Source of the DNA: a virus
Direction: 5' to 3' (one strand)
IMG/VR virus record: IMGVR_UViG_3300046710_000057
Coordinates: 22,339 to 86,338 of that record
Length of the DNA: 64,000 bases
In this document: positions 7,629 through 56,680 of the stretch, in pieces
Numbering within the stretch: the first letter of the stretch is position 1
How the letters are laid out: each line of letters opens with the position of its first letter
Notes under the pieces: model-generated
What the model saw: only the letters and a program-made list of their open reading frames with translations
The model's database searches: none
Told to the model about the DNA's origin: nothing
Program-made: the position numbers and the translations under genes

Positions 7629-8083
7629 TTCGTATACCTCTTCTGCACTTTGCGACAATACTCGATTGCTGTTGCTACTGAACGGTAAGGATTCCCACTG
7701 CCTCTTCTTACTACGCAACCTCTGCTCATTATAGTTCGGCATCGAAAGCCTAATGGTCGCCAACGATCTAAATGACGCGAACCTCGAACGGCTCTACCGG
7801 TGTCTGCAACGATCAGATGTTCTCCGGTGTGAAGTTGAATCACAGTGCCGAGAGGATAGTGACGCCGATCTGCGGCAACAAATCCAGGTCTAACTTTGTG
7901 TCCTGAAGCTGTTATCCCCTTTGTGTTTCCACATTGTTTCTTGGTCGCTTGGTATTCAGAAATCTTGAATGTAGCACCACGAGCTACTTTGGCAAAAACG
8001 AAAGCTGCCAGCACTGCAACTCCAATCGCTACCATCCAAGCAATAGCAAACGTCCGCCAGATGCTTTGGTCTTCTTCGTACAT
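7625..8083 (-). CDS. Membrane-anchored 3D (Asp-Asp-Asp) domain peptidoglycan-active protein
   Basis: N-terminal TM helix; GITASG...VAAD...PLGT...VADTG...HLD. Confidence 0.85.
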   Translation of the reverse strand: MYEEDQSIWRTFAIAWMVAIGVAVLAAFVFAKVARGATFKISEYQATKKQCGNTKGITASGHKVRPGFVAADRRHYPLGTVIQLHTGEHLIVADTGRAVRGSRHLDRWRPLGFRCRTIMSRGCVVRRGSGNPYRSVATAIEYCRKVQKRYTK

Positions 8084-8096
8084 AAGGTTGTCCTCC

Positions 8097-11438: not shown

Positions 11439-11779
11439 GGGGTTTGGCCTGTCTGTTTGATGGCTTCATTCTCCTCTATAATCAACGATTCGAGGATGTC
11501 ACAGTAGTTGCGGATGTCATCAAGACGGCTAGTAATACCCTCAACGCTGTCCTTGCCGGTGCGGAGATAGGTAGCCAGCGAATCTACATGCTTGAACATA
11601 TAGATTCCACAAACTACTTTCGGACCAAGGTCAAGCATTCTACCGACGTGTCTGAAGTTCTCATTGCAGTCAACTCCACCACGGTCGGTTCCTGCATACT
11701 CGACATTCTTATCCCTCATGATCTTGGTACGGCGCTCGTTAGCTGTGTCCGTTACCGCTAGTCTTTCGGTAATGTTCAT
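11435..11779 (-). CDS. Nucleotide modification-associated domain 1-like protein (DUF1599-like)
   Basis: KNVEYA...NF...K...LDDIRNY pattern. Confidence 0.55.
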   Translation of the reverse strand: MNITERLAVTDTANERRTKIMRDKNVEYAGTDRGGVDCNENFRHVGRMLDLGPKVVCGIYMFKHVDSLATYLRTGKDSVEGITSRLDDIRNYCDILESLIIEENEAIKQTGQTP

Positions 11780-11787
11780 GACTCCTC

Positions 11788-12414
11788 CTAGAACGCAAAG
11801 TCTTCTTGCCAGTTTTCTTCGTTGGGCGTTACAATCTCCATACGCTCCAACAACTTGATTAGTTTCACAAGATCGTTGCAGTAGACAGGGTAGTTCCGTT
11901 CGTAGTTGTAGAGCAGAACGGCTGGATGGTACACAGGGAAGATCACGGCTTCCTTGAAGACCGAAACGGAACTGCCACCTTCAACGCCGTGCCATTCGGT
12001 TATCCGAATGTCTGGTGGTGCGCCAAGCACAGCTTGCAACGCTACCGCTCCCATAGGAATGACGAGCTTTGGTTTGACTATCTGTGCCTCTTCAGTAAGC
12101 CAGTGATAGCAGTTCTTCATCTCGTCAAGCGATGGTAGCCGGTTATCAGGCGTCCAGCATTTGACTGTGTTGGTGATGTAGACCTCTTCTCGCTCGTGTC
12201 CAATGGCCTGAAGCATCCGCATCAACCAATTGCCTGCTTGTCCTACAAATGGCTTGCCTGCTTTGTCTTCGTCTTTGCCAGGGTTCTGGCCGACGAACAT
12301 TATCTCTGCACTGGTATCACCAACACCTGCAATGGGGCCGTTACACTTCTCGCGTATCGAGCATTCTTTGCAGTTATGTAGCGTTTCGAGCCAGAGTGAG
12401 GTTTCGTTTGGCAT
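11788..12414 (-). CDS. Uracil-DNA glycosylase family 4 (Fe-S)
   Basis: CKEC, FVGQNPG, PFVG, TNTVKC, YHPA. Confidence 0.92.
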   Translation of the reverse strand: MPNETSLWLETLHNCKECSIREKCNGPIAGVGDTSAEIMFVGQNPGKDEDKAGKPFVGQAGNWLMRMLQAIGHEREEVYITNTVKCWTPDNRLPSLDEMKNCYHWLTEEAQIVKPKLVIPMGAVALQAVLGAPPDIRITEWHGVEGGSSVSVFKEAVIFPVYHPAVLLYNYERNYPVYCNDLVKLIKLLERMEIVTPNEENWQEDFAF

Positions 12415-30031: not shown

Positions 30032-30347
30032 TGGTGGAGGTGGCGAGACTCGAACTCGCGTCCGAAAAGTTCAATCCCAAACATCTACGAGTGTGTTTAC
30101 TGTTTCTTCTGCCTTGCCTATGGTCAGTAACTAGCCAGCATCGTCTTTATGGAATCACTGTTCCTGGCTTTGGGTTATACGGTAGCCAGAAGACCGCAAT
30201 CGTCAGAGACCCCAATGGAGTCAATCTGGTCGATAATTGACTGTGAAACGTTCGCTTTTGATTGTTTGATAGATTCTTAACGAGGCCAACTATCATCCTC
30301 GACTCGCAGTTTGTTCGATTCCTCTCCGTCGATTCCAATTCACCCCC
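30032..30347 (-). ncRNA. ssrA: tmRNA
   Basis: 5' GGGGGTGAA...TCGACGG; 3' GGACGCGAGTTCGAGTCTCGCCACCTCCACCA with G3.U70; tag frame starting GCG AAC. Confidence 0.93.
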
Positions 30348-31450: not shown

Positions 31451-31592
31451 TGATAGGGGCCAAGGAATTGAACCTTTGCTCTTACTCCTTTTCGTAAGTT
31501 GCTTCAGCGACTAGTACGCTTACTTAACCAACCGTTTGGAAAAGGCGAGAATCGAGAGATTATTCTAGCTTACTCTCTCTCCAATGCCCCCA
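31451..31592 (-). ncRNA. Enlarged tRNA-like RNA (142 nt)
   Basis: Acceptor TGGGGGC/GCCCCTA, T-loop TTCAATT, inserted D-loop and variable arm. Confidence 0.55.
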
Positions 31593-39629: not shown

Positions 39630-42600
39630 TTAGTCTCCCAACGATGCGTCCACTTGCTCGTCAGCACGCTCGTTTTTGTCGTCGTCGTGTGCATCACTCC
39701 AGCCATTAGCCCACGCTTGGCGGAGGTCGGTAGCGTGCAGCACACACTCTTCGGCCTTGACGCCATCCATGTAGCTCTTGTAGCCTAGTCGGTAGGCTTG
39801 AGTTGCGATAACATCCTTAGCGGCTTCTTCTTGACGTTTACTTGCCACTGCATCCTCCTTTGGTTTTGGCACTAAAATGACTCCTGTATATGGAGCTAAA
39901 CTATTGAGAACGTGGTCTGTCACTTGACAATCTCCAGTTCTCGCGGCATAAACTGAAGCAATAGACCATCATCGAATCTTACTTTGATGGGGTAGGTTGC
40001 AGCCGACTCTGCTATACGTTCGACTGTTCCTACCTTGCCTACATAGTCATGATAGTGAGGGGCCGCGTTTATCACTTCGATGACCTTGACTTGTGACTTG
40101 CCGACTTTGAGTGCGTTCCACTCATCAGTATTCATAGTTACCTCACGACCGGCACACTTGCCTCTGCTGTTAGATGAGGCCGGTTGCGTTCAATCCAAGC
40201 AAGCGCAGGGCCAGCCTCGACAGAGCACTCGAACCCAACGCCGTGCTTCTTGCGGCAGTACTCGAATAGATCGTCAAGCTCGTGGTTTTTGCCCTCGAAG
40301 AACTTAGCCACATAGTCTGCTGGGTAGTCGAAGCCCCACTCACAGCGAGCGAGTGCTAAGATTTCCTCGTCGCTTGCTTGCTCAAACCACTTCGTTGCAT
40401 CGAAGTTAGCCTCATGAATGTAGTCGTCGGAATGAACCTCGGCAGTTATGGCGTCGTGTTCTATATCATCCTCGAAGACTACAGACCCAATTCGATCTTG
40501 GGTATCATCATCATGCTCGCCAATCACGCTATGCTCGTAATCTCCAGGCTCAGCAAAAGCCAACTCGTCGGCAAGTGCCGTGATAGCGTCAACCATATCT
40601 TGCCGGTATTCGGTTTCCAACTCTATTTTTATCTTCACGGATGTCTCCTTTCGTTAATCGTTCGGCCAGCAATCTGGCCCTTCTGCACCGCACCTCATAC
40701 ACCGACACTCATCAGGGTCAGCAGAGGTTGAGCAGTTTATGTGATACCAAACGTCACGCTTCAGGTCTGTGTCGTAAACCAGTTGCCAACTCTCTTTGAA
40801 TGGCACTTCGCCTTGCGTGCGGATGGGTTTACCTGGAACTGGAATCAGCATTAGCTTGCTCGCTTTCTCGTGCTTCACGAAAACCTTCTAACCAGCAACT
40901 CGCTAAGTCCTTATTGTCGCGAACAGCAAGGATATGCAGCCGGAGTATATCCCTATGAACGCGAGTGTGTACTTGGTTACTCTGGACATTTGACTGGCTC
41001 CTTGCTTATGATGACATCTCCACACTCAGAACAGACAACTGCAACGTCGCCTGGTTCAAGATCGACTGGGATGCCTGCTTCCTGTGGGGTAAGTAGATGG
41101 CAGTGATAGCAAGAGTGCTGTATGTCGCGCCCTTGCTTAGCAGCTAGACAGTGAGGACAGTCGCAGCTACTCATTAGTTGTCACCTCCCAACCGTTCAGG
41201 CCCATAGGTCTTGTCTTCAGGGTCAAGCACAGGGTCAGGGTCACGCTTCGGCTTGTCTATCGGTTCCATTTTCAGTAGCTTGACCATTTTCCATTGAAGC
41301 TCATCAAGATAGACACCGGCATCAGCCAGAGCTTCCTCCTGATCGGCTTCAAGTAGTCCGCTTGTCGCATCTTCGCCGAGGTTGTTTACCATAAACTCCT
41401 CAGCTTTCTCGATGAGGCGATTCAAGTCTCTGATCTTAGTCCAGACATCATCTGGCTCGTCTATAACTGATAGGCGACCATCATCATTGTCACTCAATCT
41501 ACGTCACCTTTCTTCCACTTGACGACTTCCCCCTTGGGGTCGCAACGCGGACACAGCACTGGCTTACCGCATACTGAGCAAACGTATGGTAGGACTACAC
41601 TTCTGGTTACTCGCACCCACAGTAGCCACACAGGGATACAGGTGGCAATCAAGATAACGAGTTGTGCAATGATAAGCCCAAAGTTGATTGCTGGAAAATG
41701 GTTGAGGTAAATCATTGGAACCCTTCTTACGGTCGCTTGTCACATGCTCTCCCATTGATGGGGCAGACCACGACCGTATACACGGAATCATCCGTGCAGA
41801 TAGTCTTGATGACTTGGTTGAGATGAGTGTGGCACGAGTTACAATGCGCTCCCTTGGCTGAGATTTCGTACTCTGCTTCGTTGCTACACTCGTGCCGCAC
41901 CCTTTGTCCCTTGTAGTCGCACTGTGGCATTAAGCCACCTTCCTTTCAGACCCTCGCCTTAGAATGTTGGCGAGCAGCAGTGCGTCATACACTTGCAGGC
42001 GCGTGGGATTGTCCAGGTCAGCCTTTTGCAGCGACAATCGTAGCGCGTCTTCGATTTTCCTGTAGGGGTTCTTTCGACCAAACATAATCTTACCCCTTTC
42101 GATCTAGCTTAGTCTTGGTGATGCTGATGAGCTTTTGTGAACTGGCTCTTCAGGCTGCCTGCTATGCCGATAGCTTCGCTGATCTCTTCGCGCACAGGGC
42201 CAGGGTCAACGTTCTTGAAGGCCGCGTGCAAGGCCGATTCTATCTTACCCAATTGCACGTCCAAACCAACACAGAACGTGCCTTTGCCTTTCTTGACTCC
42301 GATGCTTTTCTCTCCGAACATAGCGACTACTTCCTTTCTTCCTGCTCGCAATGAGCGCAATGTGGGTTTGCTTGTACAGGCCCAACAACGTGGACACCGC
42401 CACCGATGGGCTTTTCGCAATTGGCACACACGAGATTGTATTCGTGCGTGACCTTGTTGTAGGTTAGATACCAGGGAGCACAGCAACACTTACTGTGGAC
42501 GTAGAAAAGCTCATCCGGCATGTTTGTCCTCCCCCAGTGACTCTGCTCTGCCGAACGCCAACTCAGCAATCGACTGAGGCTCAGTTCCCTCTATACCGTC

Positions 42601-43281
42601 GAGTAGACCAACGATGTCGGTAGCAAACTGAACCGTCATCATCTTGAGCTTCAGAGCATCCTCTTCAGTCAGACTCGGAAGCATACCTGACATAGACTGT
42701 ATGGCATTGCGTACGAATCCGTGGAAGAGGTTGGGATACTTGTCCCATACCTTCTTTGCCTTCTCTAGCGGCCCACCTTCTTTATCGAAGCTGGACATAT
42801 CTTCTAGCAGGTGGACTAGAAGTTCCTCTTGCGTTGGGTCTCGCATCTTAGTTATCCTCTCTGGTGTACTCTGACACCACAGGTTCGCCGTCGAAGTCGT
42901 GGTCGATAATGCGGAGCTTGACATTGATCGGCACTTTGGTACGCACGATTTCGCCTTCTTGCACTTCGATTGTGACTAACTTCAGCCGTTTATGTTGTTT
43001 TTCAGCAGCCATACTTACTCCTTGGGCATGAACTCGGCAGCAGTCTTCAACATCCCACGCACGTATGCTATTCGCAGGTCGCCTGCAATCATTGCAGACT
43101 CGTCAGTTGTTGGCTTGCGAACGGAACCTTTGTCGTCTACAATCATCAAAGGTTCCTGACACTTCAGACAGATGGTAATATCGCCTTCCTTTGGTACGTG
43201 TTCGCCTGTAATGGCAGTACAAGCGTCGAGCTTGTAGCCACAGTAGGGGCAGTTTGTAGTCTCGATGTCGAACACTTGCAT
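39630..43281 (-). other. Array of small early hypothetical CDSs (e.g. 39630-39923, 39920-40135, 40138-40638, 40654-40878, 41174-41497, 42327-42569, 42511-42924, 43015-43281)
   Basis: Abutting minus-strand ORFs with overlapping stop/start codons. Confidence 0.6.
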
Positions 43282-43318
43282 TGAACTACCCTCCTTTCGC
43301 TAGTGGTATAATTGACCT

Positions 43319-43765
43319 ATGGAACGTTTTTGGTCAAAGGTCAAGATCGGTGAAGCCGATCAATGTTGGGAATGGCAAGCTGGCTGCGACACTGATGGGT
43401 ATGGTATGTTTTGGTTTAACGGCAGGATGGTTCATGCTAGTCGTGTCGCCTATATGCTTGCCAATGGTTCAGTCGAGGAACAATGTGTCCTTCATACTTG
43501 TGACAACCCACCTTGTTGTAACCCTGCTCATTTATTCCCTGGAACTCACCAGGATAACACGCTTGATATGCGTGCAAAAGGCAGGGGTGTAGACAATAGT
43601 GGCGAGAATCATGGAATGCACAAACTAACCGAACCACAAGTTATTGAGATTCGTCAATTATATGCAACCCAACAATTCTCTCAAGCAGAATTAGGTAGAA
43701 GGTATGGTTATGCTCCAGCGACAATATCAGATATTGTCCGTAGAGTTAGTTGGAAGCGCATCTGA
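43319..43765 (+). CDS. HNH homing endonuclease with HTH (copy 2), antisense to flanking genes
   Basis: RFWSKV, CWEWQAG, LHTCDNPPCCNPAHL; extended -10 TGgTATAAT just upstream. Confidence 0.9.
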   Translation: MERFWSKVKIGEADQCWEWQAGCDTDGYGMFWFNGRMVHASRVAYMLANGSVEEQCVLHTCDNPPCCNPAHLFPGTHQDNTLDMRAKGRGVDNSGENHGMHKLTEPQVIEIRQLYATQQFSQAELGRRYGYAPATISDIVRRVSWKRI

Positions 43766-45382: not shown

Positions 45383-45847
45383 CTATTGATTGCGTGTCTC
45401 GATTGCTTTGTCAAGGTAGAGCTTAGCGCCATTGAGGTCGATGACTGCTCCCCTTGCGTCCAGCACAGCTTCATTCGGCGCGGAATCTATCTCAAGTATG
45501 GACTTCTGATATTGCTGACCAGCAGAGGTTACAAGTTCTGCCGCTCTGTGCAGGTAGTAGTCAGGCTCACCGAACTTTGCGCTTGCTGTCACGGATTCGA
45601 GTTCAGCAGCAGTAGCCACTATCTTTGTGAGGCTGGCTAACGACCGCTCTCTTGCTGCTGAGCCGCCAATAACCCCATCCTCGACAGGTAGCTCGACTGC
45701 TGACAGTGCATCAGCCATTGCTGCCAGCTTGTCAGAAACAACTGCGTCGTGGTCGTCAGTTACTCGGCTACCTAGCCAGCAAGCAACAATCAACACGATC
45801 AGCACACCAACAACAATTGCAACTTTCATTGAAAGCTCCTTTGCCAA
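45383..45847 (-). CDS. Membrane-anchored hypothetical protein
   Basis: N-terminal hydrophobic helix. Confidence 0.6.
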   Translation of the reverse strand: MAKELSMKVAIVVGVLIVLIVACWLGSRVTDDHDAVVSDKLAAMADALSAVELPVEDGVIGGSAARERSLASLTKIVATAAELESVTASAKFGEPDYYLHRAAELVTSAGQQYQKSILEIDSAPNEAVLDARGAVIDLNGAKLYLDKAIETRNQ

Positions 45848-45865
45848 ACTCTAATGAGCTTGTCG

Positions 45866-45970
45866 ATGGGGTAAGGAGGAATCGAACCTCACATAGCGAG
45901 CAGGGTAGGTTTTCTAGCAGCCACCCTGTCGATTCGAGTCTTGCTAGAAGCTAACTCCCTTCTACCCCAT
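45866..45970 (-). ncRNA. tRNA-like RNA with acceptor and T arms but a pseudoknot/switch in place of the anticodon arm
   Basis: ATGGGGTAG/TTACCCCAT stem; GAGG-TTCGATT-CCTC T-arm; crossing helices TTCTAGCA/TGCTAGAA and CAGGGTG/TACCCTG. Confidence 0.6.
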
Positions 45971-45980
45971 GAACAAGCTC

Positions 45981-46799
45981 ACTCGATTGCAATAACGTCC
46001 GTGCTGTCTAACTATTAGGCTATCCGCCCTTAGATGAGGTAACAACGACCTCTAAAGTTTGATGATTGTTACAGCAGAGACTACAATCAGGTGAACTTGA
46101 TACTTGGTTGCCCTTTTGGACGATTGTACGCAGACCAGCTTATTCGCTGACACCAGGGAACAATCCGATCACCGTTGCGTGCTCGTTTACTTCGGCGATC
46201 TCTGTTCAGCTTAGGTGCTCGCTACACATCGCCTGTTGCCTTCCCTTGCGGTACTGGCAATCAGTCACACACGATCTCAGCCGCTTGCACTCTAGCCTAT
46301 CCTCATTCCGGCCTCAATATTGGGGAAACATAACCCTCGGTCGTTTGATGCTTTGGTTACTACCTTCTAGCACTTGACACCTTCATCACTTACAACTTAT
46401 CCCTCGCGATGTGCTCGCTTGCTGGTAGTTAGTCCCTCCTACGGTAGGGCTTTTCACTCACACTCTCGCAAGCTCATCATCACTATCGGCTAAGTTCAAC
46501 GGCGTCCGTTCGCTACATTCGCCTTCGCAACCGTTCCGATTCCCACTAATTATGGCTAAGTTTACCGGCTTTTACGGATGGGCCTTAGACTGCCCAGTTG
46601 CTATATCTTTTTCCGACAGGCTGCCAACCTGTCTTATCCTTCAACCAGTCTAGCTCATGACTGTCAGGACTTGGCTCTGCTCGCTCGCTTGAGTCTATTT
46701 TCGCCGAAGCTACTCATATCCGCGCCGTTCCGAGTTTTGCCGTTAGCTTGTCTCACCTCCCTTTGTGGGTAGCGCACTAGCGATCTCTCCGCGCCACCA
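45981..46799 (-). ncRNA. Candidate giant ornate ncRNA (about 820 nt)
   Basis: No minus-strand ORF; many hairpins, GNRA/UUCG loops, loop-E motifs; promoter directly upstream. Confidence 0.6.
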
Positions 46800-46804
46800 T
46801 AATC

Positions 46805-46833
46805 ATGTTACCAGGTTAAGATTCGACTGTCAA
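46805..46833 (-). promoter_or_regulatory. Sigma70-type promoter TTGACA-N17-TAACAT
   Basis: Read directly from sequence. Confidence 0.75.
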
Positions 46834-46940
46834 TACCCTTTTGGAAACTTTCGCAAATGATTTATTCGCCGATTGTTTCCTTGCTTGCTTAGCGCGACTG
46901 CTGAAGCATCTGCTTCTTATGAACCGCGCCCAACGAATCC

Positions 46941-46969
46941 ATGTTACCGCATATACTACCCTGTGTCAA
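46941..46969 (-). promoter_or_regulatory. Second sigma70-type promoter TTGACA-N17-TAACAT
   Basis: Same hexamers as 46805-46833; A/T tract upstream. Confidence 0.75.
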
Positions 46970-47089
46970 TAACTTTCGGCGATTATTCCAAAAAAAGTTT
47001 TTGCACAGGTCGTTTCATTCGATAATAGCAGACTCATCGGAGCAGAATCTCATCTGCTGACAGGGAGCAACCTCCCTGTTTCGTCCTAG

Positions 47090-47218
47090 CTACCCATCGT
47101 AGACTTCACGTTCAAGCTCGTGTATGCTTGACACAAGCTCTGCTTCGTCGGCCTTCTGTTGCTGTGCTATACGCTTCTGCTCAGCTATCCAAGCAAGGAA
47201 TCGTCTAATCAATCTCAT
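47090..47218 (-). CDS. 42-aa peptide MRLIRRFLAW... (not in ORF track)
   Basis: AAAGGAG RBS. Confidence 0.6.
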   Translation of the reverse strand: MRLIRRFLAWIAEQKRIAQQQKADEAELVSSIHELEREVYDG

Positions 47219-47231
47219 CAGTTACTCCTTT

Positions 47232-47390
47232 CTAAAGATGAGGTTCGCTTTCTAGCTCGACCAGTTCTCGATGAACGTCCGCTAAGCACCTACGCTGCTC
47301 AGCTATCATCTCTGCGTCTGCTTTCCTGTCTGCTACAGTCTGAGCGTTCGGTTGTAGCAAGTAGGCTATTATTCGCCGAATCAATCTCAT
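47232..47390 (-). CDS. 52-aa peptide MRLIRRIIAY... (not in ORF track)
   Basis: Paralogous start to the adjacent peptide. Confidence 0.55.
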   Translation of the reverse strand: MRLIRRIIAYLLQPNAQTVADRKADAEMIAEQRRCLADVHRELVELESEPHL

Positions 47391-56533: not shown

Positions 56534-56680
56534 GTGGGAGTAGTTTAATACAAAGGCTGAACGGAATAAGGTACTGTCCTTGCATGAAGAGTAGTCTACC
56601 ATGCGAGTGTAGGCAAAACGTCTAGGTAGCGTAAGACCGGTTCAACCTAGAAGTTGGGGGTTCGATTCCCTTCTCCCACT
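56534..56680 (+). ncRNA. Enlarged tRNA-like RNA (147 nt)
   Basis: GTGGGAG/CTCCCAC acceptor; GGGGG-TTCGATT-CCCTT T-arm; about 65-nt structured D-loop insert; 7-bp anticodon stem with 17-nt loop. Confidence 0.6.

Follow-up and report, generated by a model that had tools for sequence, protein, structure and literature searches.

Background

In vertebrates, the 3'-end maturation of MALAT1, whose transcript carries mascRNA, and that of MEN-beta were reportedly described by Wilusz et al. in 2008. Efficient maturation of MALAT1 by RNase P requires an extended acceptor stem on mascRNA, formed by pairing between leader and trailer (PMC8457004). The t-elements of plant mitochondria are tRNA-like structures found at the 5' or 3' termini of mRNAs, where they have been proposed to serve as cis-signals for RNase P and RNase Z (PMC1920247). 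Among phages, an RNA of mycobacteriophage DS6A that consists only of a tRNA-like domain (TLD) has been proposed to act on ribosome rescue (PMC4131195, PMC11915505), and RNAC and RNAD, stable small RNAs from the tRNA region of phage T4, are unexplained (PMC3014915). Finally, the phage RNAs GOLLD and ROOL assemble via few inter-subunit contacts, and the linker of GOLLD sometimes holds tRNAs (10.1101/2024.12.08.627333).

Phages are increasingly found to carry tRNA look-alikes without a decoding role. The element described here is derived from a tRNA or a TLD, does not decode, and lies in an unusual stalk at the junction of a giant RNA and an mRNA in a peat phage; the function and fold proposed for it below are predicted. 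It provides a clean test case, in that such a junction, a stalk of RNase III size and two competing folds occur together. Like the t-elements, it is non-decoding and located between parts of a transcription unit; t-elements, however, are organellar, usually smaller, and possess neither an attached giant non-coding RNA (ncRNA) nor a long stalk. It shares with RNAC and RNAD a relation to tRNA and the lack of decoding, a likeness by description, but the two T4 RNAs are found inside a tRNA cluster and do not end a giant ncRNA.

Genomic setting and transcription unit

The window, which is the whole stretch of 64,000 nucleotides analysed, comprises bases 22339-86338 of the 128,636-bp (128.6 kb) IMG/VR phage record. 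The gene content of the phage includes a DnaE-type polymerase, helicases and a methyltransferase, and its RNA genes include four tRNAs, identified by ARAGORN, and a full tmRNA at 30032-30347, identified by Rfam with 113 bits and missed by ARAGORN. No gene for SmpB, RNase III, a CCA-adding enzyme or a tyrosine integrase was found in the phage. The genes around the element are on the minus strand, as are all coordinates of the element itself. Its surroundings are organised as follows, in the direction of transcription:

46941-46969, minus strand: promoter P1, TTGACA-N17-TAACAT, exact motif
46805-46833, minus strand: promoter P2, TTGACA-N17-TAACAT, TG-extended, exact motif, with a predicted start near 46798
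45984-46798, minus strand: giant RNA candidate, ORF-free and purine-rich, preceding the element (context only)
45383-45842, minus strand: orphan ORF of 148 amino acids with Shine-Dalgarno sequence AAAGGAG (45842-45836) and ATG at 45829

The promoter motif has five matches (at most one mismatch) in the window, against 0.35 expected. No minus-strand ORF of at least 40 amino acids is present in 45848-47089, and the candidate giant RNA would measure ~830 nt from P2 and ~970 nt from P1. It matched no Rfam family in all-family scans, in which GOLLD was covered, nor ROOL, which was searched singly. The element is placed exactly between this ORF-free RNA of ~830 nt and the next ORF, whose ribosome-binding site begins 11 nt after the stalk. 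No terminator was found between the element and the ORF; a weak one is located at 45291-45269, beyond the ORF. We infer from this arrangement that giant RNA, element and 148-aa ORF belong to one transcript. The search for homologues of the 148-aa ORF found none, and the proteins flanking the element are orphans or nearly so.

Two features near the promoters were also recorded. The interval 46934-46834 between P1 and P2 marks a P1-specific transcribed stretch of ~136 nt, which opens with a GGGCGCG...CGCGCU hairpin resembling the GGCGCG...GCGCU hairpin that opens the P2 transcript, and might have arisen by duplication of a leader. Two tandem small ORFs on the minus strand (47090-47218 and 47232-47390), located immediately upstream of the promoters, both begin with MRLIRR and look like paralogues.

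Structure of the element

The element is an RNA of ~101 nt that possesses the top half of a tRNA, has no anticodon and is mounted on a stalk of ~22 bp. Its parts are, from 5' to 3':

45972-45983, minus strand: 5' (leader) arm of the stalk, AGUGAGCUUGUU, paired with 45864-45853 through 10 Watson-Crick and 2 G.U pairs (probability 0.96)
45969-45970, minus strand: positions -2 and -1 (A, U), paired with U45866 and A45867 and extending the acceptor helix (probability 0.97)
45962-45968, minus strand: 5' acceptor strand GGGGUAG, with a predicted RNase P site 5' of G45968
45936-45957, minus strand: D-side hairpin GAGUU/GACUC with inner GCU/AGC, holding segment A and UAGC (outer stem probability 0.66)
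45928-45935, minus strand: octamer GAAUCGAC, which recurs unchanged in the D-loop of the phage tmRNA and whose reverse complement gives the T loop
45901-45928, minus strand: hairpin B/B' (8 bp) with a 12-nt loop carrying A' (45919-45912, UGCUAGAA); lower 6 pairs with probability ~1.0
45891-45900, minus strand: 3' linker CUCGCUAUGU of 10 nt containing GCUA 45897-45894, as read from the sequence
45875-45890, minus strand: T arm with stem GAGG/CCUC and loop UUCGAUU; C45875 is mismatched with U45891
45867-45874, minus strand: 3' acceptor strand UUACCCC and A45867 at the discriminator position (A73); no CCA encoded
45853-45864, minus strand: 3' (trailer) arm of the stalk, GACAAGCUCAUU, paired with the leader arm

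The first-pass annotation had described a tRNA-like small RNA in which crossing helices replace the anticodon arm, and much of that description agrees with the present analysis. The acceptor-like stem is formed by GGGGUAG (45968-45962) and UUACCCC (45874-45868), with six Watson-Crick pairs and G7.U66. As had also been reported, there is no G3.U70, G3 (G45966) being paired with C70 (C45870); no CCA is encoded, A45867 being followed by UCG; and there is no anticodon, the 7-nt anticodon loop being absent. The T arm, said to be perfect, does have the loop UUCGAUU (45886-45880), but its stem amounts to only 4 bp (45890-45887/45879-45876) plus the mismatch U45891 x C45875. The D-region had been called unpaired; the folding model indicates that 45957-45936 may form a hairpin. 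UAGC (45953-45950) is indeed complementary to GCUA (45897-45894), but the thermodynamic pair probability of the proposed helix is ~0. The crossing segments stand: A (45949-45942, UUCUAGCA) and A' (45919-45912) are complementary at all eight positions, giving 8 perfect pairs worth -9.3 kcal/mol, and B (45928-45921) forms eight pairs, one of them G.U, with B' (45908-45901), the slightly longer B' given before (45909-45901) working with a bulge. The linker between A' and B', put at 2-4 nt, was measured as 2 nt. The linkers of the crossing helices, 1 and 2 nt, are tight for an 8-bp helix.

The acceptor stem of 7 bp directly adjoins a consensus T loop (UUCRANN type), the T-loop 11-mer GGUUCGAUUCC fits the tRNA consensus, and position -1 is U. 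To assess the interior, 5000 dinucleotide shuffles of its 70 nt were made: an 8-bp perfect helix arose in 2.3% of them, crossing helices of 8 and 6 bp in 0.06%, and the octamer GAAUCGAC in 0.2%. These figures, like those of the genome scan given further below, come from post hoc tests designed once the features had been seen. The earlier remark that the interior is a partial pseudoknot or a two-state switch is reasonable, the crossing complementarity being non-random by the shuffles; the pairing itself is a prediction.

The 12-bp helix between leader and trailer, the two added pairs and the acceptor stem together make up the stalk of ~22 bp, in which C45971 and C45865 form a 1x1 mismatch. This stalk was kept in folds of 146, 166 and 969 nt (z = -5.4, -4.5 and -3.4, respectively), and in the 969-nt fold the 3' domain stays separate and stalk-mounted. 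RNase III stems measure about two turns, that is at least 20 bp of near-continuous duplex, and the stalk reaches this size with 12 bp, the 1x1 mismatch and 9 bp. The RNA island of the phage contains two other long helices of 21-25 bp, 30345-30365/30515-30535 and 31597-31618/31700-31721, which enclose interiors of 149 nt and 81 nt (z = -8.4 for the 141-nt fold). The first stops precisely where the tmRNA has its 5' end, and the second does so at the 5' end of a tRNA look-alike at 31454-31592. Both are candidate RNase III sites, and since they lie 5' of the tmRNA and of the look-alike, RNase III-size duplexes beside RNase P-type 5' ends appear as a theme of this genome. The possibility that the helices belong to MITEs was rejected, as the three long inverted repeats have no common sequence and no target duplication was seen.

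In another reading the element would remain part of the giant RNA as a 3' domain that is not cleaved, and its stalk would hold up a module with a T loop and a pseudoknot or kissing loops, used for tertiary docking, oligomerisation or 3'-end protection and comparable to the GOLLD-linked tRNAs and to the 3' tRNA-like structures of plant viruses. This reading is unlikely, but several observations are consistent with it: the domain is separate and stalk-mounted in the 969-nt fold, the loop-loop complementarity of A and A' is non-random, with the palindrome CUAG in both loops, and both assembly contacts of GOLLD and ROOL and tRNAs linked to GOLLD have been described (10.1101/2024.12.08.627333). In addition, nucleotides 46372-46361 of the giant RNA repeat UGCUAGAA and are complementary at 11 of 12 positions to UAGCUUCUAGCA of the element (45953-45942), with which they could make a long-range contact; the count of such complementarities is, however, at the chance level for 1.4 kb, where an estimated ~4 9-mers are expected. 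An uncleaved domain is also disfavoured by the lack of an Rfam match for the giant RNA, and by the ORF with its own ribosome-binding site 11 nt past the stalk, which favours the separation of two RNAs.

Relationship to tRNAs and tmRNAs

ARAGORN recognised the element neither as tRNA nor as tmRNA, and the Rfam models of tRNA (RF00005), tmRNA (RF00023) and mt-tmRNA (RF02544) gave no hit at E up to 10, the tRNA model being run on the whole phage. The best hit within the clan was tRNA-Sec (18.3 bits, E = 2.9), which is sub-threshold, compared with at least 29 bits for a canonical tRNA under the covariance model, and spans exactly the acceptor and T arm. Lacking an anticodon arm (5-bp stem, 7-nt loop), the element is not a tRNA; its interior consists of a 22-nt hairpin and a hairpin of 8-11 bp with a 12-nt loop. 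Three further identities were rejected. Only when relaxed to -ps80 did ARAGORN return a 'tRNA-Phe with intron'; this call forces an intron of 39 nt, misplaces the start, takes the stalk as acceptor and is an artefact. An attP site is contradicted by the absence of a tyrosine integrase and by the presence of the 5' acceptor strand, which an attP core does not need. The 10-codon frame AARKPTLLAM-stop crosses helix B', ends in the T stem and has a chance of ~60%, and the RNA cannot be alanylated.

Phage-encoded RNAs without an anticodon form a close comparison, namely the TLD-only tmRNA of DS6A and the mini-TLDs of IMG/VR (L008:5048-5124, L289:234-297, L100, L291). In common with them, the element starts with GGGG, has A73 and an identical T loop, and carries the D-loop motif GAAUCGAC followed by a hairpin; the helix comes directly after the octamer, as does helix 2a in tmRNA. 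TLD-only RNAs, however, mostly have G3.U70 and in several cases CCA, place 5-11 nt before the octamer (motif ...UCGAC of a stem-less D-loop) and 3-4 nt before the T stem, and are 64-79 nt long, whereas the element has G3-C70, an insertion that puts the octamer 26 nt past the acceptor, behind an inserted hairpin, a 10-nt linker, no CCA and a stalk. The identity of an alanine-accepting TLD was rejected on the same grounds of base pair 3-70, both spacings and the missing CCA. The first-pass annotation had suggested a mimic of the tmRNA TLD; the resemblance in start, A73 and octamer with following helix is retained, but membership in the family is not, given those differences and the absence of an Rfam hit. 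Descent from a TLD is plausible on sequence features: a T loop equal to that of L008, a start of GGGG, A73, and the octamer followed by its helix.

Such a descendant, tag-less and non-chargeable, might act in trans on ribosome rescue, for example by binding SmpB, as proposed for DS6A. This is a doubtful explanation. The octamer is the same as in the D-loop of the phage tmRNA and of the mini-TLDs L008, L020, L289, L100 and L291, with a helix following in all; T loop and D-loop/T-loop complementarity are the same as in L008; GGGG start and A73 agree; the mini-TLD-like L290 likewise has neither G3.U70 nor CCA; and passages in PMC4131195 (citing Mao et al. 2009) and PMC11915505 state that a TLD-like molecule inhibits tmRNA whether chargeable or not. 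On the other hand, G3-C70, the 26-nt insertion before the octamer, the 10-nt 3' linker and the failure of ARAGORN and of the tmRNA and mt-tmRNA models speak against a decoy, and the octamer is not rare, with 7 occurrences in the genome. Furthermore, full tmRNAs are present in the phage as well as in its relatives, so that a decoy would compete with the phage's own, and the phage has no SmpB gene.

Tag-less mini-tmRNAs made of the TLD only (64-79 nt) were recorded in IMG/VR at L008:5048-5124, L020:786-862 (minus strand), L027:3734-3810, L050:4844-4920, L289:234-300, L100:2867-2948 (minus strand) and L291:7563-7640. All seven have G3.U70, and CCA is encoded in all but L100 and L291; the first 20 nt of L289 are the same as in the phage's tmRNA. 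L290 (around 8005-8086) possesses a similar mini-TLD frame without G3.U70 and CCA. Oversized look-alikes without an anticodon (113-150 nt) are found in unrelated viral and metagenome contigs, namely L024:320-432 (also L032, L103), L123/L151:6223-6343 and L120/L140/L144/L191; they have full 7-bp acceptors and 5-bp T arms and are not called by ARAGORN.

Homologues and look-alikes

The exact 24-mer of T arm and acceptor was not found in IMG/VR, and blastn of GenBank phages found nothing. Other copies are limited to two JGI contigs, which match the region at 100% identity. Motif searches in IMG/VR and the JGI metagenomes brought up tRNAs, mini-TLDs and look-alikes unrelated to the element, but no homologue of it. 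As no diverged homologue was found, no helix has covariation support. The nearest relatives by DnaE, G001 and G002, share 51-52% identity and possess tmRNAs, but no tRNAs, no top-half elements and, by nhmmer, nothing that can be aligned to the giant RNA or the element; a 14-nt match in these genomes lies inside a coding region and was dismissed as chance. The tags of their tmRNAs end in ...MEVMAA (G001, 73827-74175) and ...MELMAA (G002, 11608-11992). G001 (IMGVR_UViG_3300037067_004608; 124 kb, 40% GC; also L282), the closest of the large relatives, contains, on the plus strand at 42583-43371, an ORF-free, purine-rich stretch of 789 nt that resembles a structured RNA. This stretch lacks a tRNA-like end, and no similarity between it and the giant RNA could be detected.

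The whole phage was scanned on both strands for tRNA top halves, defined as a consensus T loop with at least 4 T-stem pairs directly adjoining a 7-bp acceptor with at most one G.U. Six hits were obtained, whereas simulated genomes averaged 0.38 and never gave more than 3. They consist of three tRNAs and three look-alikes, namely the element, 31454-31592 and 56534-56679, the latter two also oversized. CCA is encoded in three of the four tRNAs and in the tmRNA but in none of the three look-alikes, which argues for a non-charged role.

These look-alikes bear on a further reading, in which the element is what remains of a tRNA or TLD gene in decay: a pseudogene with a surviving top half, its RNA having no function of its own. 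That is improbable. The phage contains at least three oversized non-decoding look-alikes, its closest relatives have neither tRNAs nor look-alikes, suggesting a recent gain followed by decay, and the T stem is weakened by a mismatch, all of which would suit a pseudogene. Decay does not, however, predict the crossing complementarity seen in so few of the shuffles, and the 12-bp leader-trailer helix fits exactly around an element that is located exactly at the ncRNA/ORF junction.

Competing folds

Thermodynamic folding assigns pair probabilities of ~0 to the T stem, to helix A and to UAGC/GCUA, and of 0.86 to 1.0 to B, the acceptor and the stalk. An alternative helix between GAAUCGA (45935-45929) and UCGAUUC (45885-45879) has a probability of 0.71 and is ~5 kcal/mol better by nearest-neighbour folding. 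The same mis-prediction of the T arm is made for mini-TLDs with G3.U70 and CCA, and a T-stem probability of ~0 is therefore by itself no argument against the tRNA-like state, which is the fold predicted here for the element.

That the T arm does not form in thermodynamic folding, and that the tRNA, tmRNA and mt-tmRNA models all fail to recognise the element, might be taken to mean that the resemblance arose by coincidence in what is simply the structured 5' leader of the ORF downstream. This is very improbable, since the probability that a 7-bp helix ends at exactly the right distance from a consensus T loop is estimated at ~1e-4 per helix and the genome-wide scan gave far more hits than expected. 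The element is real and its features are non-random.

Both folds could be used if the element were a two-state mimic, in which GAAUCGA hides the T loop and A/A' pairing locks one state. RNase P would then create the 3' terminus of the giant RNA, whether giant RNA and mRNA are separated would depend on folding or on the binding of a factor (SmpB, for example), and the whole would be a phage counterpart of MALAT1-mascRNA. We consider such a switch to have a low probability.

A predicted processing module

The interpretation we tentatively prefer, with somewhat less than even confidence, is that the element is a processing module derived from a tRNA or TLD, at which RNase P, and perhaps RNase III, would fix where the giant RNA ends and release the mRNA that follows. 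tRNA-like processing signals are characterised by a top half at the junction of transcript parts without a terminator, and this is the arrangement found. Among the readings considered, that of a processing signal fits the layout best, because of the two strong upstream promoters, the absence of a terminator, U at -1, the ncRNA/ORF junction and the leader-trailer stalk.

The module would have descended from a tRNA or from the tRNA-like domain of a tmRNA, becoming non-decoding while retaining the top half, and its interior would be idiosyncratic, with one hairpin on the D side and a second, long one, their loops being mutually complementary. A cut by host RNase P 5' of G45968 would provide the giant RNA with its 3' end, and the stalk may be cleaved by RNase III, either additionally or first. 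An endonuclease or exonuclease acting on the 3' side would trim after A45867, so that the downstream mRNA is freed with its ribosome-binding site, and an uncharged tRNA look-alike of ~101 nt would be released.

The top half formed by acceptor and T arm is the part of a tRNA that RNase P recognises. A fully paired leader, however, can hinder bacterial RNase P, which counts against processing at this site. The proposal is further weakened by the T stem of 4 pairs and a mismatch, by its folding probability of ~0 and by the relative with 51% DnaE identity that lacks the element. An uncleaved 3' domain and a TLD decoy, as set out above, would both be compatible with processing.

Comparison with known systems

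The proposed processing module resembles MALAT1-mascRNA in that a small non-decoding tRNA-like structure comes after a long ncRNA within a single transcript, and in that the acceptor stem is extended by leader-trailer pairing; the 3' end made by RNase P is known for MALAT1 and is a prediction for the phage. MALAT1 differs in being eukaryotic, and mascRNA, of 58-61 nt, has a stem like that of an anticodon arm and possesses neither a pseudoknot-like interior nor a 12-bp stalk. With GOLLD and ROOL the locus has in common a large, ornate phage ncRNA physically tied to a tRNA, some GOLLD RNAs having a covalently linked tRNA; in contrast to them, the giant RNA matches neither family in Rfam, and the attached module is not a functional tRNA.

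By analogy with these systems, the element is most likely a known device, a tRNA-like cut signal for host enzymes, in an unusual stalk-mounted form. If it is cut as proposed, the giant RNA would gain a defined 3' end for structural work, and phages would finish a long ncRNA by the same trick as vertebrate MALAT1.
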